This document shows, one piece after another, positions 20,758-26,757 of a DNA stretch of 29,102 nucleotides; the first letter of the stretch is position 1; the number at the start of each line of letters is the position of its first letter. Origin of the DNA: an uncultured Thermococci archaeon (GTDB lineage Archaea; CAYQAE01; CAYVLA01); the NCBI GenBank assembly GCA_964549615.1, contig CAZJVP010000064.1:1-29102 (forward strand). The letters run 5' to 3'. The notes under the pieces were generated by a model. It was given only the letters and a program-made list of their open reading frames with translations. It searched no databases and was not told the DNA's origin. A program made the translations under genes and the position numbers.

Positions 20758-20972
20758 CCTTGCGCTCAAGCCCAACACCGCAAGGTTCGATGGATCAAGG
20801 TTCTTATAACTTCCATGGACCCCGCCCGGTGCCGTCACCATCCCGAGCCATTGCGCCAACGGGCGAACGGAGGGGCGGACCCTGCGCGTTCATTCAGCCC
20901 GTGGACCGGGCGGAAGTACTTATAGCCGCTACAAGTCAGCCGGAACGGGTGTCGCGCGTGAGCCGCAAGGAT

Positions 20973-21710
20973 ATGTGGTCGGAACCCTTCAAGAGGATGG
21001 TCGTGATGGGAGAGAGCACGGTGCAGGGCGGGCCGTGGTTGACCAGGCAAGAGGATCGATGGCCCGACGTTCTGGCCCGGCTGATAGACTCCTGCCAAGA
21101 TAGCCCAGTGGAGTACCATAACAAGGGAATCGGCGCCAATGCCATATCCCCCCGCAGTCCTGGATACCCTTCGTCGGCTAAGCCAAGCGCCCTGGAACGC
21201 TATCGCAGGGACGTGATCGATCTGAAGCCCGATCTCTTCATACTGTGCTACGGGCTGAACGACATGCGCGCGGCCATGGACGTTGGGGAGTTCTCCGAGG
21301 ACATGCAGACCATCATAGGCGATGTCAAGGATGCCTGCGCACCGCTCATCGTGCTGACCACGGTCTACTATATGACGGGGTGGAGGAGCTACCCGCCCTT
21401 CGACAAGGGAAGCGTCGAGTTGGCCCTGCAGTACAACGAGGCCATCCAACGGCTTGGAATAGCAAACGGCTGCATAGTCTCGGATGTCTGGGATGCGGAA
21501 GGCGGCGCGGACTGGCTGATCAACCCCGACGGGGTCCACGCCAACTACGTGGGAAACCTGATCATCGCGCACAGGGTCTTCAGGGACATCGCCGTGAACT
21601 GCAGTTGCCTCTCGAAGGCCACCTTCGAGCGGACCAGGGACACGAGATGGGTCAGGGACACGACGGCCTCCAGGAGGCAATTAGGGGACCCCTTCACGAA
21701 GACATGGTGA
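20973..21710 (+). CDS. SGNH/GDSL hydrolase family esterase
   Basis: Block I MGEST, block II NKGIGAN, block III YGLND, block V DGVH; CTTATA about 50 nt upstream. Confidence 0.88.
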   Translation: MWSEPFKRMVVMGESTVQGGPWLTRQEDRWPDVLARLIDSCQDSPVEYHNKGIGANAISPRSPGYPSSAKPSALERYRRDVIDLKPDLFILCYGLNDMRAAMDVGEFSEDMQTIIGDVKDACAPLIVLTTVYYMTGWRSYPPFDKGSVELALQYNEAIQRLGIANGCIVSDVWDAEGGADWLINPDGVHANYVGNLIIAHRVFRDIAVNCSCLSKATFERTRDTRWVRDTTASRRQLGDPFTKTW

Positions 21711-22191: not shown

Positions 22192-22620
22192 TTAGACGCT
22201 TCTGGTCGTCAATCTTCGTATGCCTCTCAGGCGATCAAGATGCTTGTCGAAGCTGTAAATCTCGGTTAGGCCGAGCCTCGTCATGGCTACCCATGCCAGC
22301 GCGTCGTTGGCGCTCACTTCAGCTTCCTTCGCCATCGCAAGTGCCTCTTCGTAGTCCTCTCGACCGACAGGGAGTATGGCGAGATTCCCGCTGGCCGCGG
22401 CCCAGGACAGGAATCCCAGGGACTCACGCAGGCCGAGACCCGTCTCGATGATGTTCACAACCTCGGACAGATGCGCAGTCGTCATGGCGGCCTCCTCTCC
22501 GGCCTCGAGGGCCTCCACGATCGACTTTGCTTCTTCTTTCGCCTTCTTCTCCTTCGGCGTCAGATCCCTGCGAGGAACCAGGAAAGCGTGCAGGAATACG
22601 TTGGAGTCGACAAACCTCAT
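22192..22620 (-). CDS. vapC: VapC PIN-domain toxin
   Basis: FVDSNVF, LSEV, NDAL, IYSFDKHLD acidic PIN residues; ATGA overlap with the upstream antitoxin. Confidence 0.92.
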   Translation of the reverse strand: MRFVDSNVFLHAFLVPRRDLTPKEKKAKEEAKSIVEALEAGEEAAMTTAHLSEVVNIIETGLGLRESLGFLSWAAASGNLAILPVGREDYEEALAMAKEAEVSANDALAWVAMTRLGLTEIYSFDKHLDRLRGIRRLTTRSV

Positions 22621-22856
22621 CGCTTAGGCCCCAATAATGCCCTCTTCAGCGAATGCGCATCCAGAAAATCTGCAGCATCCGGCACCCTGATGCTGTCGAA
22701 GAACTCAGAGGGCTTCACAGGCTCGACCGGCAGCATCTCTATCATGTTTCCGCGCTTTCTCAGCATGACACTGTCGGACTTCCAATCCCGCCTCCACTCT
22801 GCCGGGACTGAGACCCTTCCCTGCCCGTCAAGCCTCCTCACGACCGCTTCGGCCAA
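22617..22856 (-). CDS. vapB: AbrB/MazE/SpoVT-family antitoxin
   Basis: RRLDGQGRVSVPAEWRR AbrB fold; directly upstream of vapC; GAGGAG before the TTG. Confidence 0.88.
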   Translation of the reverse strand: MAEAVVRRLDGQGRVSVPAEWRRDWKSDSVMLRKRGNMIEMLPVEPVKPSEFFDSIRVPDAADFLDAHSLKRALLGPKR

Positions 22857-23139: not shown

Positions 23140-23162
23140 GGGTTAACAAAGCAATTTAACCC
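23140..23162 (+). promoter_or_regulatory. Perfect inverted repeat GGGTTAA-N9-TTAACCC overlapping the TATA box of the nifB-like gene
   Basis: 7-bp arms at 23140-23146 and 23156-23162, ending 14 nt before the TTG start. Confidence 0.6.
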
Positions 23163-23176
23163 AGGCGGATGAGTCT

Positions 23177-24004
23177 TTGCCATTGCGAGAACTTCATCCC
23201 TGCTTCTCTGAGCAGGCCCACTTCCAGCATGCCAGGGTTCACCTTCCAGTGGCTCGAAAGTGCAATCTGGGCTGCAACTACTGTGAACGGCTGGTTGGCG
23301 GAGCTTCCTATCACGCTTACCGCCCCGCGGTCTGCGATAGGATCATGTCACCGGCCGAAGCGCTATCTTGCGTCAAGCAATGCCTCCTCACGGTGCCAGA
23401 GCTGAAGGTTGCGGGCATCGCAGGCCCGGGCGAGCCCCTTTGCAATGAGGAGACCTATCGCACGTTGGACCTCCTACACAGATCGTGGCCCGAGCTGATC
23501 CTCTGCCTGAGCACAAACGGCCTCCTTCTTTCGGAAAGCGTCCCGAGGCTCACCAAGCTTGGGGTCAGGACGGTCACCGTCACGGTCAACACAACAAACC
23601 CCACGACCGCCGCGGCGATCTACAGCCATGCCATCATCGATCGACATCTGCTGACAGGGCTAGCCGCGGCAGAAGCCATCGTTGAGAGGCAGATCCCTTC
23701 TGTCAGACGGGCCGCGGACGCTGGCCTGCTCGTCAAGGTCAACACCATCCTCATGCCCGGCATCAACGAGCGGGAAATTGGTCGGATAGCTAGGGCCGCG
23801 CGGGACGCCGGGGCCTGCGTCCAGAACATCATCCCCCTGATCCCACTTGGCAGATTCGGTTCGTCAAGGCCTCCCTCATGCCTCGAGCTGAGGGAAGCAC
23901 GCCGCAAGGCAGGCCGCTTCCTGGATCAGTTCGCGCTATGCCGACAGTGCCGCGCGGATTCGGTCGGCATCCCGGGGCGTCTGGACTCAACGCTAGGCCG
24001 GTGA
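23177..24004 (+). CDS. NifB-like radical SAM protein (single-domain archaeal type, no NifX domain)
   Basis: HPC, RVHLPVA, CNLGCNYC, AGPGEPL, LCLSTNG, TVTVN, VKVNT, CRQCRADSVG; the ExRP motif is altered to AYRP. Confidence 0.88.
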   Translation: MPLRELHPCFSEQAHFQHARVHLPVARKCNLGCNYCERLVGGASYHAYRPAVCDRIMSPAEALSCVKQCLLTVPELKVAGIAGPGEPLCNEETYRTLDLLHRSWPELILCLSTNGLLLSESVPRLTKLGVRTVTVTVNTTNPTTAAAIYSHAIIDRHLLTGLAAAEAIVERQIPSVRRAADAGLLVKVNTILMPGINEREIGRIARAARDAGACVQNIIPLIPLGRFGSSRPPSCLELREARRKAGRFLDQFALCRQCRADSVGIPGRLDSTLGR

Positions 24005-24042: not shown

Positions 24043-26445
24043 CTACCAAGTGAGGTCTTCCGAGGGCGCCTTCCCTTTTCCGGTGACCTTCTCCAGTATG
24101 ATCCTTTGCTCGATGGACGCAACCATCTTCTTGGCCGACTTCACGGCGTCCGGATTTACCGATATGGAATCGATCCCAGCCCGGATCAGGAACTCAACGA
24201 ACTCCGGGTAAACCGATGGTGCCTGTCCGCAGATGGAAACGGTCTTACCGTCCCGATGTGCCACATCTATCAGGTGCGCAATGGCCCTCTTGACGGCTAG
24301 GTTCCGCTCATCGAAGATCTTCGCCACGGCCTCATTGTCCCGATCCGCACCAAGCAGCGTCATGGTCAGGTCGTTGCTCCCGATGGAGTAGCCATCCACG
24401 AACTTGTTGAACTGGTCGGCCAGGATCACGTTCGAGGGTATTTCGGCCATCAGCCAGACCTTGAAGTCGGGACCCCGCTTGAGCCCCTCCTCCTCCATGA
24501 TCTTAACCACCTTCTCGCACTCCTCGACGGTGCGGCAGAACGGAATCATTACCCAGAGATTGGTTAGCCCGAACTCCTCCCGGACTTTCTTGACTGCCCT
24601 TACCTCCAAGCGGAAGGCGTCTATGTACTTCGGATCGTAGTACCTGGACGCTCCCCTCCAACCAAGAAGGGCGCTCGGCTCCACCGGCTCGAACTTCTCA
24701 CCGCCCCTCAGGTTCCTGTACTCGGAGGTCTTGAAGTCGCTGAACCTCATCACGACCGGCCTAGGCGCCATGCCGGCACAGGTCTGCCTCATGAACTCGG
24801 CCAACTGGTCAACGACCTTCTCGGGGTGGCCCTCCTCGATCAGCTGCAGCGGGTGGTCCCTGATGTAGTCGGTCCAGATGAACTCCTCCCTCATCAGCCC
24901 GATTCCATCACAGGGCAGGGCGCCGTGCTCTTCCTTGAACTCGACTCCGAGATTCATGTAGACCTTCGTGCCCGTAACCGGAATGTTCTCGGCCACGGCG
25001 ACCATCCCGGGCGCGAGGCCCGCCTCAACCTTCCTCACGGCCTCCTCAAGCACGCCCTCGTAAACCACCCCGTTCTTGGCATCGACGGTCACGGAGGTGC
25101 CGTTCTTGATCGCGTCGGTCGCCTTCGTCCCCTTGCTGCCCGTCCCCACGATGCACGGAATCCCGAGCTCGCGGCTTACGATCGCCGCATGACACGTCAT
25201 GCCCCCGGAGTTCGTCACGATTGCCCTCGCCTTCTTCATGGCCGGCACCCAGTCGGGGGCGGTCATCTCGGTGACGAGTATCTCGCCCTCCAAGAACTCG
25301 TTGATGCCCTCAACGGACATGATGACGTGAGCCTTCCCGGCCGCCACGCCCGGGCTTGCAGGCAGGCCACGGCAGAGCATCTTCCTCTCCGTCGTCACCT
25401 TGACCTCCTTCTCCTCAGGGGCGGCCTGCTTCAAAGACCACACCGTCTCGGGCCGGGCTTGAAGTATCCAAAGCTTGTTGGTCCGCTCATCCAGGCCCCA
25501 CTCGATGTCCATCGGCCGACCATAGTGCTTCTCGATGTCGATGGCGTATCTTGCGAGCTCGACGATCTGTTCGTCGGTCAGTACCTGGGCCTCCTTCATG
25601 GCCTCAGGGACCTCGCGATGTTCAACCCCGCCGCCCGGCTTCCTCACCAGCATCTCGGTCTTCCTGCTCACCGTCTTGCTGACGATCCTCAGGTCGGCTT
25701 TGCTCACGACGTATTCATCCGGAGTTATCTTGCCCTGAACGACGTATTCGCCCAGGCCCCATCCTGCCTCAATCAGCACAACATCTCTGTCCCCCGTGCT
25801 GACGTTGAGCGTGAAGATCACGCCGGCCGCCTTGGAGAAAACCATGAGCTGGACGACGGCGCTCAGGGCCACCGCCATGTGGTCAAACCCTTTCTGCACG
25901 CGGTAATATATCGCCCTGTTCGTGAAGAGCGAGGAGTAACACTCCTTGACCTTGTCAACGACCTCCTCCGCGCCCCTCACGTTCAGGTACGTCTCCTGCT
26001 GCCCGGCGAAGCTCGCATCGGGCAAGTCCTCCGCAGTCGCGCTCGACCTTACCGCAACGAAGGGCAGCTCCTTCGTCTTGGCGTCCTTCTGATATCTCTG
26101 CGCGAGCTTCCTATATGCGTCCGCGATCTCGTCGGCAAGCTCCTTAGGCATGGGGGCCTCGACTATCAGCTTCCGTACCTCGGCTCCGACCTTCTGGAGG
26201 ACTGGCGTGTCCTCGGGATCCTTCAGCTCGGACAGCACCTTGGCTATCCTCTTGTCAAGGCCGGCCTTCTTTATGAACAATCGAAAAGCAGCGGCCGTGG
26301 TGGCAAACCCGTAGGGCACGGGCACCTTCATCTTGGAGGTCATCTCGCCCAAGGACGCGGACTTACCGCCGACGAGCGGCACCTCTTCCCTGCCAATTTC
26401 ATCAAACCAAAGAACGAACCTTTTCTCCTTCGCAACGGCTGCCAT
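24043..26445 (-). CDS. ppsA: Phosphoenolpyruvate synthase (pyruvate, water dikinase)
   Basis: VGGKSASLGEM, VAVRSSATAEDLPDASFAGQQETYLN, DIEW, QARPET, GGMTCHAAIVSRE (phospho-His), SIGSNDL, ICGQAPS. Confidence 0.96.
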   Translation of the reverse strand: MAAVAKEKRFVLWFDEIGREEVPLVGGKSASLGEMTSKMKVPVPYGFATTAAAFRLFIKKAGLDKRIAKVLSELKDPEDTPVLQKVGAEVRKLIVEAPMPKELADEIADAYRKLAQRYQKDAKTKELPFVAVRSSATAEDLPDASFAGQQETYLNVRGAEEVVDKVKECYSSLFTNRAIYYRVQKGFDHMAVALSAVVQLMVFSKAAGVIFTLNVSTGDRDVVLIEAGWGLGEYVVQGKITPDEYVVSKADLRIVSKTVSRKTEMLVRKPGGGVEHREVPEAMKEAQVLTDEQIVELARYAIDIEKHYGRPMDIEWGLDERTNKLWILQARPETVWSLKQAAPEEKEVKVTTERKMLCRGLPASPGVAAGKAHVIMSVEGINEFLEGEILVTEMTAPDWVPAMKKARAIVTNSGGMTCHAAIVSRELGIPCIVGTGSKGTKATDAIKNGTSVTVDAKNGVVYEGVLEEAVRKVEAGLAPGMVAVAENIPVTGTKVYMNLGVEFKEEHGALPCDGIGLMREEFIWTDYIRDHPLQLIEEGHPEKVVDQLAEFMRQTCAGMAPRPVVMRFSDFKTSEYRNLRGGEKFEPVEPSALLGWRGASRYYDPKYIDAFRLEVRAVKKVREEFGLTNLWVMIPFCRTVEECEKVVKIMEEEGLKRGPDFKVWLMAEIPSNVILADQFNKFVDGYSIGSNDLTMTLLGADRDNEAVAKIFDERNLAVKRAIAHLIDVAHRDGKTVSICGQAPSVYPEFVEFLIRAGIDSISVNPDAVKSAKKMVASIEQRIILEKVTGKGKAPSEDLTW

Positions 26446-26757
26446 GCTCTCCACCACAAAAGGCGTGCGATCCGACCGCGGCGCGCGAAAATCAAAGACT
26501 CTGGCCGCGGCCTTTCTGGCGCCGCGTCTTCCGGAAATCTATTAAATGTTTATTTGAGGGAAAGATGGGAATAATCCCCTCGCTCCCGATCTCTCCGATG
26601 ACCGCGCTGTCCGTCGGATCCCCAGTCACGTTCACCCGCCAACCTTGTGCGTTTCGAAGACCTCCCAACGAGCCCAAGTGTCGTCGCGCGATCGCGTTGA
26701 TCTATGCGAGGCAGGTGTAGCCAAATATAAGCAAGCGATGGCCAAGTACGGACCGAA

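Follow-up and report, generated by a model that had tools for sequence, protein, structure and literature searches.

A NifB-family radical SAM enzyme with a remodelled plug loop in a Thermococci archaeon whose genome encodes none of the known NifB clients

NifB was until recently thought to exist only for nitrogenase, whose cofactor owes its iron-sulfur-carbon core to this enzyme. Two further uses have now been described, one in nitrogenase-like reductases such as methylthio-alkane reductase (MAR) and the other in the MCR activation complex. Here we report on a gene for a NifB-family radical S-adenosylmethionine (SAM) enzyme carried by a 29,102-nucleotide contig (CAZJVP010000064.1, positions 1 to 29,102, hereafter the window) of an uncultured Thermococci archaeon (assembly GCA_964549615.1), whose genome encodes none of these clients. 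In methanogens devoid of nitrogenase, NifB is reported to be essential (bioRxiv 10.1101/2023.10.20.563283), and the MCR activation complex, whose McrC and Mmp7 carry three L-cluster-like clusters, is described as a non-nitrogenase role of NifB (PMC12176620). According to a 2026 review, what archaeal NifB homologs target includes “archaeal proteins of unknown identity” (PMC13474568). Our literature search returned no paper on NifB in archaea that have neither nitrogenase-like nor MCR systems, a subject that supplements or figure trees may cover.

Profile and structure searches place the window protein in the NifB family. Radical_SAM was the sole Pfam family on the open reading frame (ORF; E 6.8e-15) and the top NCBIfam match was TIGR01290 nifB, with 233.3 bits (E 4.5e-69), the curated cutoff of 343.65 not being reached. 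This cutoff is not fully discriminating, as NifB from the nif cluster of Heliobacterium chlorum (L053) scores 319.7 and two methanogen-type NifBs score 345.1 and 381.6. The nearest other radical SAM family, MoaA (GTP 3′,8-cyclase), gave 66.1 bits on TIGR02666 against a cutoff of 284.05, and the MoaA match in the PDB had an E-value of 6e-4. PDB matches extending over nearly the full length were obtained with the NifB structures of Methanothrix thermoacetophila (6Y1X, E 1.6e-66) and Methanothermobacter thermautotrophicus (7BI7 and 7JMB, E 2.4e-63). An AlphaFold2 model based on 70 homologs (predicted local distance difference test, pLDDT, 94.7; predicted template modelling score, pTM, 0.92) features the partial barrel and the N- and C-terminal cluster-binding stretches of the NifB fold. 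In Foldseek, this model superposed on 7bi7_B with a template modelling (TM) score of 0.91 and a root-mean-square deviation (rmsd) of 1.4 Å, on 7jmb_A with a TM score of 0.92 and on 6y1x_A with 0.87, while the next fold family scored 0.6 or less. A protein-atlas record likewise bears the label “NifB family”. The window protein is a single-domain member of the NifB family; a place inside a characterised non-NifB radical SAM family, an outcome considered in the preliminary description of this DNA, is not the case, NifB being the closest by both profile and fold.

The ligands of the three iron-sulfur clusters are conserved. All 16 columns that are invariant across 70 diverse family members (H7, C9, C29, C33, C36, G83, P84, G85, C110, N114, G115, Q172, N189, N217, C255 and C258) are kept in the window protein, and 90% or more of the same 70 sequences share its Lys187. 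Published work describes these His and Cys positions as ligands of K1, K2 and the fused K-cluster, along with the residues that hold the bridging sulfide (PMC10114646, PMC8179604, PMC6053413), and a third, semi-conserved K2 cysteine is given as Cys264 in M. acetivorans NifB (PMC6053413). Both the K1 set (C9, H22 and C110) and the K2 set (C255 and C258, together with C235) are retained, and the SAM-binding T113-N114-G115 motif is present. Having DSVG rather than DAVG is typical for this clade, as seen by comparing the consensus of 20 close relatives with the 70-sequence set. All motifs that had been listed at the outset (HPC, Cx3Cx2C, AGPG, TxTxN, Cx2CRxD, RVH, CLSTNG and DSVG) were located in the sequence, and the assignment of the named His and Cys positions as K-cluster ligands, all of them kept, agrees with PMC10114646 and PMC8179604.

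The plug loop, which follows the radical SAM cysteines, is remodelled. In the resting state of canonical NifB, the Cys of this flexible loop is described as capping the radical-SAM cluster and its Glu as providing the fourth ligand of K1; both residues are termed strictly conserved and required for NifB-co synthesis (PMC8179604). In a 98-sequence MAFFT alignment, the canonical Cys aligns with Ser44 of the window protein and the canonical Glu with Ala47, Tyr45 and His46 lying between them; the loop is thus without its usual Cys and Glu, as had been noticed from the sequence, a change that is relevant to the mechanism. Gly41, Gly42, His46, Tyr48, Arg49 and Pro50 do not vary among 20 close relatives, His46 being found in 20/20 of these nearest sequences. 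The loop is also the least confident part of the model, with a mean pLDDT of 67 over residues 41–50. Among the 120 best database matches, a His-type loop was seen in 58 with no Cys and in 20 with one, 32 had a canonical Cys-containing loop, and the remainder were of another type (7) or unparsed (3). The altered loop, which the preliminary description had listed together with the orphan status of the gene, is not tied to that status, since 78 of these 120 matches are His-type and some of them adjoin nitrogenase-like D/K/H genes. No paper on a His-type plug loop was found in the literature search, although supplements and figure trees may cover it.

The genome carrying this gene (G000) is a 3.21-Mb draft in 104 contigs, estimated to be 99.46% complete. 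A profile search with PF00148 gave no match in it, hence no NifD/K/E/N, CfbD or BchN/B type protein, and no NifH-like gene was found, the best PF00142 match (48 bits) being an archaeal MinD (277.6 bits on TIGR01969). Matches to PF04609 (McrC/Mmp7), TIGR03274 (Mmp7) and PF02249 (McrA) were also absent from G000, which excludes the MCR activation complex as a client there; five genomes of the alkanotroph or methanogen type, serving as controls, were positive as expected when searched in the same way. Because the nitrogenase-like genes and the McrC/Mmp7/MCR genes are both absent from G000, both known kinds of L-cluster user are missing. The co-occurrence with nifH, nifD and nifK, and usually nifE and nifN, expected of a NifB is therefore not seen in this genome, and four other genomes of the same class (G001–G004) gave no PF00148 match either. 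The gene had first been called an orphan on the basis of the window, from which nif genes are absent; this status extends to the genome, with no complete nif set elsewhere in G000.

NifB without a known client is not confined to this archaeon. Of the 32 NifB-bearing genomes examined, 12 were without PF00148 and 10 without both PF00148 and PF04609 (G000, G042–G044, G046, G049, G052–G054 and G064). In the Asgard phylum, sampled evenly as 151 genomes at least 80% complete, 33 genomes were NifB-bearing, 30 of which lacked both families. Eighteen Asgard NifB-like proteins form a clade of their own, with a support of 100 in the Shimodaira–Hasegawa-like approximate likelihood ratio test (SH-aLRT); they are 36–45% identical to the window protein, and 15 of the 18 have a His at the position aligned with His46. 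Their loci (L204–L221) share, in 17 to 18 of 18 cases, genes for TopoVI-B, TopoVI-A, a coiled-coil protein, a 334-residue protein without Pfam family, a Roadblock/LC7 protein and the NifB-like protein, arranged in this order. On the convergent side of these same loci stand two paralogs of about 280 residues, a DUF2797 gene and a second radical SAM gene.

Phylogenetic trees were obtained from 98 sequences under the LG+C20 mixture model, with the loop columns dropped, and from 83 sequences under LG+G4. The window protein belongs to a subclade of at least eight sequences (including P0002, P0004, P0006–P0009 and L094) sharing 57–81% identity, with SH-aLRT supports of 81 and 97 in the two trees, and next to it lie a Bacillota sequence (L018) and a group including a Theionarchaea sequence (support of the wider group, 90 and 73). 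A single clade for all His-loop sequences is not claimed, as it was recovered in the 98-sequence tree (SH-aLRT 87) and split into several groups in the 83-sequence tree. In the His-loop group of the former, D/K or H neighbours were found at 5 of 12 loci and were absent from the DNA examined at the other 7, this DNA being only 1.1 kb long in one case. At L095 and L097, two NifD/K-like genes and a NifH-like gene are followed by a NifB-like gene with a His-type loop, while at L018, in a setting of methyltransferase genes, H, D and K precede the NifB-like gene by about 1 kb. At these three loci the D/K-like genes reach 240–260 bits on PF00148 and the NifH-like genes 322–354 bits on PF00142. The D/K-like proteins fall under every NifD/K/E/N cutoff, with NifE and MarD as the best solved, but distant, matches (104–140 bits), and these are therefore uncharacterised nitrogenase-like systems. 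For the D-like protein of L018, the best solved match was MarD in 9FMG (140 bits), the structure described as MarDK2H2 (PMC12552129). The Cys aligned with MarD Cys270 is kept in this protein and a Pro occupies the place of MarD His429, so that its cofactor site differs from the characterised L-cluster site. Taken together, the D-K-H-B and H-D-K...B arrangements of L095, L097 and L018, the invariance of His46 and the His of the Asgard proteins make the His-type loop appear compatible with function.

The history of the locus was followed in the lineage. In L094, where 14 kb of a 100-kb metagenome contig was examined, lactamase-fold, pectate-lyase-like, GDSL, NifB-like and convergent ppsA genes occur in the same order as in the window. 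G001, the sister of G000 on the PpsA tree (support 96/97), is yet without the NifB-like gene. As the gene occupies the same site in two lineages that are not closest relatives, an old presence followed by repeated loss is suggested. Compared with the L094 ortholog, the ratio of nonsynonymous to synonymous substitution rates (dN/dS) is 0.23, with dS saturated at 1.69, against 0.09–0.13 for the flanking genes. The NifB-like gene is under purifying selection, but it is accessory and fast-evolving.

Our preferred reading, held tentatively and at a little under an even chance, is that the protein is an active cluster synthase of the NifB type, which has a remodelled, His-based gating loop and serves an acceptor still to be named. 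Like NifB, the enzyme would hold a radical-SAM [4Fe-4S] cluster and the substrate clusters K1 and K2. K1 and K2 would be fused and a carbide inserted with the use of SAM, yielding an [8Fe-9S-C] core like the L-cluster or one closely related to it. Gating of SAM access by the plug loop would be altered, the capping Cys and the K1-ligand Glu having been replaced by a conserved Tyr-His pair, of which His46 is the likely substitute ligand. The product would then be passed to an acceptor outside the known families, since G000 encodes none of these.

Several results weigh against this proposal. The window protein lacks both loop residues required in canonical NifB, where replacing the Cys or the Glu is reported to abolish or greatly reduce NifB-co formation while SAM cleavage persists (PMC8179604). 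These variants would fit an enzyme of changed chemistry which, without the loop Cys and Glu, makes no NifB-co and either stops at a fused [8Fe-8S]-type K-like cluster, makes a different cluster or carries out another SAM reaction on a cluster or small molecule. The TIGR01290 scores point the same way, those of the window protein (233 bits) and its L094 ortholog (217) being the lowest of the 11 NifB relatives scored, as does the different cofactor site of the L018 D-like protein. However, every core ligand of K1, K2 and the radical-SAM cluster and every SAM-contact residue is invariant, the fold matches a cluster-loaded NifB structure at an rmsd of 1.4 Å, and the conserved His of the loop could act as ligand instead, so that we regard a change of chemistry as unlikely. 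The survey of 32 genomes must also be read with caution, since these were the best matches to the query alignment, hence a non-random set, and their completeness figures are not given.

Other adverse points concern the standing of the gene itself. It is dispensable in its lineage, G001, G002 and G003 being without it, and just 6–27 bp, with no remnant, separate GDSL from ppsA in G002 and G003. It also evolves faster than its surroundings, with 57% amino acid identity to the L094 copy versus 78–80% for GDSL and PpsA, and its GC content at third codon positions (GC3) is 0.72 versus 0.81–0.82 for the neighbours. Finally, neither a conserved neighbour nor a candidate acceptor was found, four candidates having been tested by hand, and a look-up of RNA runs for the window returned none. 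The patchy occurrence in G000 and the L094 organism, the rapid evolution, the low GC3 and the monocistronic arrangement without conserved partner would suit a relic, that is, a leftover of a nitrogenase-like D-K-H-B operon, such as those in which some relatives reside, which would have lost its clients and its role and be vanishing lineage by lineage. We nevertheless consider a relic quite unlikely: the two syntenic copies are both intact despite 43% residue difference, with the dN/dS given above and 16/16 invariant residues kept, and client-less NifB-like proteins are the rule in the Asgard phylum, where they come with a conserved neighbourhood. Moreover, PF00148 has no match in any of the class's five genomes, so that any loss of clients would be old, too old for a functionless gene to have stayed intact. 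It could still be argued that nitrogenase-like or McrC/Mmp7 genes lie in the unassembled part of G000, since a 4-kb operon could fall in a gap of a 104-contig draft. The completeness of the assembly, the lack of PF00148 in G001–G004 as well and the many other client-less genomes make this very improbable. An active synthase with a His-based gating loop is accordingly the reading that we retain.

The coordinates of the gene, its motifs and its neighbours are gathered in Table 1. The ORF has an intact frame of which TTG is the first start codon, and this start is the credible one because close homologs begin with M-Q-E-L-H-P-C, just ahead of the HPC motif. Public gene calls (P0001 and the Atlas record) make the protein begin at Val25, with 251 residues, in which case Cys9 and His22 are lost; by leaving out positions 23177–23248 of the window, such automated annotation would make the protein seem more degenerate than it is. 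The gene is monocistronic because minus-strand units flank it on both sides. Family assignment of the flanking ORFs confirmed the vapBC and ppsA neighbours given in the preliminary description. The vapBC pair, which is absent between the GDSL and NifB-like genes of L094, is for that reason a separate, genome-specific insertion. The AT-rich heptamer upstream of the TTG, read from the sequence, is a possible archaeal TATA element, and a sigma-70 promoter scan at the NifB-like gene gave no match.

Table 1. Position of the NifB-like gene, of its cluster-binding and loop motifs, and of neighbouring elements in the window
Feature	Positions	Strand	Remarks
NifB-family radical SAM gene	23177..24004	+	275 aa, TTG start, monocistronic
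HPC (aa 7-9)	23195..23203	+	Cys9 is equivalent to Cys18 of M. thermautotrophicus and Cys29 of M. thermoacetophila, bridging K1/K2 ligand; invariant in 70/70
RVH (aa 20-22)	23234..23242	+	His22 corresponds to K1 histidine ligand His31/His42; conserved in at least 90% of 70 sequences
CNLGCNYC (aa 29-36), CX3CX2C radical-SAM motif	23261..23284	+	Cys29, Cys33 and Cys36 invariant
Plug loop ERLVGGASYHAYRPAV (aa 37-52)	23285..23332	+	Ser44 for loop Cys, Ala47 for loop Glu
AGPG(EPL) (AGPG aa 82-85), SAM-binding glycine-rich motif	23420..23431	+	G83, P84 and G85 invariant
CLSTNG (aa 110-115)	23504..23521	+	Cys110 corresponds to K1 ligand Cys115/Cys128
TVTVN (aa 134-138)	23576..23590	+	Thr136 aligns with ribose-contacting Thr of NifB (putative, from alignment)
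KVNT	23735..23746	+	Lys187 and Asn189 correspond to strictly conserved Lys192/Asn194 holding the bridging sulfide
PSC	23873..23881	+	Cys235, probable semi-conserved third K2 Cys (Cys264 of M. acetivorans NifB), from alignment with 7bi7
CRQCRADSVG (CRQCRAD aa 255-261, DSVG aa 261-264)	23939..23968	+	Cys255 and Cys258 correspond to K2 ligands Cys260/Cys263; invariant
GDSL/SGNH hydrolase gene	20946..21710	+	Conserved upstream neighbour
vapBC-type toxin-antitoxin pair	22192..22856	-	PIN-domain VapC (22192-22620) and small MraZ/AbrB-like antitoxin (22617-22856)
AATTTAA AT-rich heptamer	23153..23159	+	Ends 17 nt before TTG; read from sequence
Phosphoenolpyruvate (PEP) synthase gene (PpsA-type; PEP synthase/PPDK family)	24043..26457	-	Convergent, downstream, 38 bp from the NifB-like stop

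Candidate acceptors were also looked for beyond the locus. Carriers of the NifX-like family PF02579 were rejected as partners: there are four in G000, but relatives that lack the NifB-like gene have two to three each and none occurs in three client-less genomes, so that the family does not discriminate. In a crude phmmer scan, NifX-like ORFs flanked 2 of 167 NifB loci. The four PF02579 genes of G000 are clustered on one contig (C100; L188, 3933–16889), one being fused to ZT_dimer and one to DUF5320, in the company of a DtxR-type iron repressor with a FeoA domain and of genes for a metallo-beta-lactamase-fold protein, an Mrp/NUBPL ATPase and a pyridine nucleotide-disulfide oxidoreductase. The double-cubane cluster protein family PF06050, considered as another client, had no match in G000. 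The 334-residue Asgard partner, searched with one query, had no match there either, and the archaeal loci without clients, those of the Asgard clade set aside, were found to have no conserved neighbour in common.

Some features of individual NifB-like loci were recorded along the way. In the client-less archaeon G052 (L021, 6544–8837), the gene for the large subunit of a [NiFe]-hydrogenase has its 3′ end overlapped by the NifB-like gene, and in the Bathyarchaeia genome G054 (L023, 7090–8807) a DUF2099 gene is located 12 bp upstream of the NifB-like gene. Downstream of H-D-K in L018 (7023–11594), the genes flanking the NifB-like one encode two class I methyltransferases, a CMD-family protein, a cupin and a B12-binding radical SAM protein. 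Compact D-H-B modules, comprising a single D-like gene plus one NifH-like and one NifB-like gene, were seen in metagenome-assembled genomes (MAGs) of a Baldrarchaeota (L019) and an Actinomycetes (L030) and on a metagenome contig (L100). L124 was discarded as a Mar-type comparator, its D-like segment having no PDB match at 1e-30. A bacterial NifB-like clade (L036, L114, L117, L123, L130 and L152) has the loop ERTVGxRARxxxGPGT, without Cys, Glu, His or RP, and a conserved operon in the order ExbD, TonB, NifB-like, SBP_bac_11 and TPR; G064, the single genome of this clade that was checked, has neither PF00148 nor PF04609.

With a near-complete genome, both types of client excluded, intact ligands and a loop that breaks the Cys/Glu rule, this gene offers a clean test case for who else uses the NifB product. 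An active enzyme would point to a carbide-cluster protein as yet unknown and would mean that NifB chemistry can be gated differently, which is relevant to the expression of NifB in other hosts. It might even be that a third, undiscovered class of L-cluster-like carbide-cofactor proteins exists in non-methanogenic, non-diazotrophic archaea, namely this lineage and most of the NifB-bearing Asgard archaea sampled, with His-loop NifB relatives as suppliers, an idea that we regard as doubtful for now.

Among described systems, NflB/MarB, which accompanies the Group IV nitrogen fixation-like (NFL) enzymes such as methylthio-alkane reductase (MarBHDK), is likewise a NifB homolog outside nitrogen fixation, and the relatives that share the loop type of the window protein in L018, L095 and L097 adjoin D/K/H-like genes. 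An NflB/MarB would be expected next to nflH, nflD and nflK or at least in one genome with them, however, and none is present in G000 or G001–G004. MarB is said to retain all NifB motifs (PMC13474568, PMC12552129); the window protein, unlike MarB, does not have all of them, and is set apart from it by this published description. IsrB was ruled out as a relative, as it is described as unrelated to NifB beyond the radical-SAM motif (PMC11423573). The housekeeping NifB that methanogens and alkanotrophs possess, and that is thought to provide the L-cluster-like clusters of the MCR activation complex, also stands alone, far from nif genes, in archaea without nitrogenase, but has a canonical Cys-Glu loop, which the window protein does not. 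The Asgard NifB-like proteins resemble the window protein in having loops without Glu and TIGR01290 scores under the cutoff. They differ from it in keeping the loop Cys (SCH type) and in their conserved neighbourhood with the Roadblock/LC7 and 334-residue proteins, whereas the window gene has no conserved partner.

The archaeal single-domain NifBs of M. thermoacetophila (6Y1X) and M. thermautotrophicus (7BI7/7JMB) differ from the window protein by a plug loop in which Cys and Glu are present and which is 3–4 residues shorter, and the TIGR01290 score of the window protein, 233 bits, compares with 345–382 for two methanogen-type NifBs of this single-domain kind. They are otherwise of the same length class, likewise without a NifX domain, and have a common fold with it (TM 0.87–0.92, 38–40% identity in the structural alignment). 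They share with the window protein the HPC cysteine, the K1 His and Cys, the CX3CX2C motif, the CxxC at the C terminus and the contacts made by Lys/Asn and Thr.

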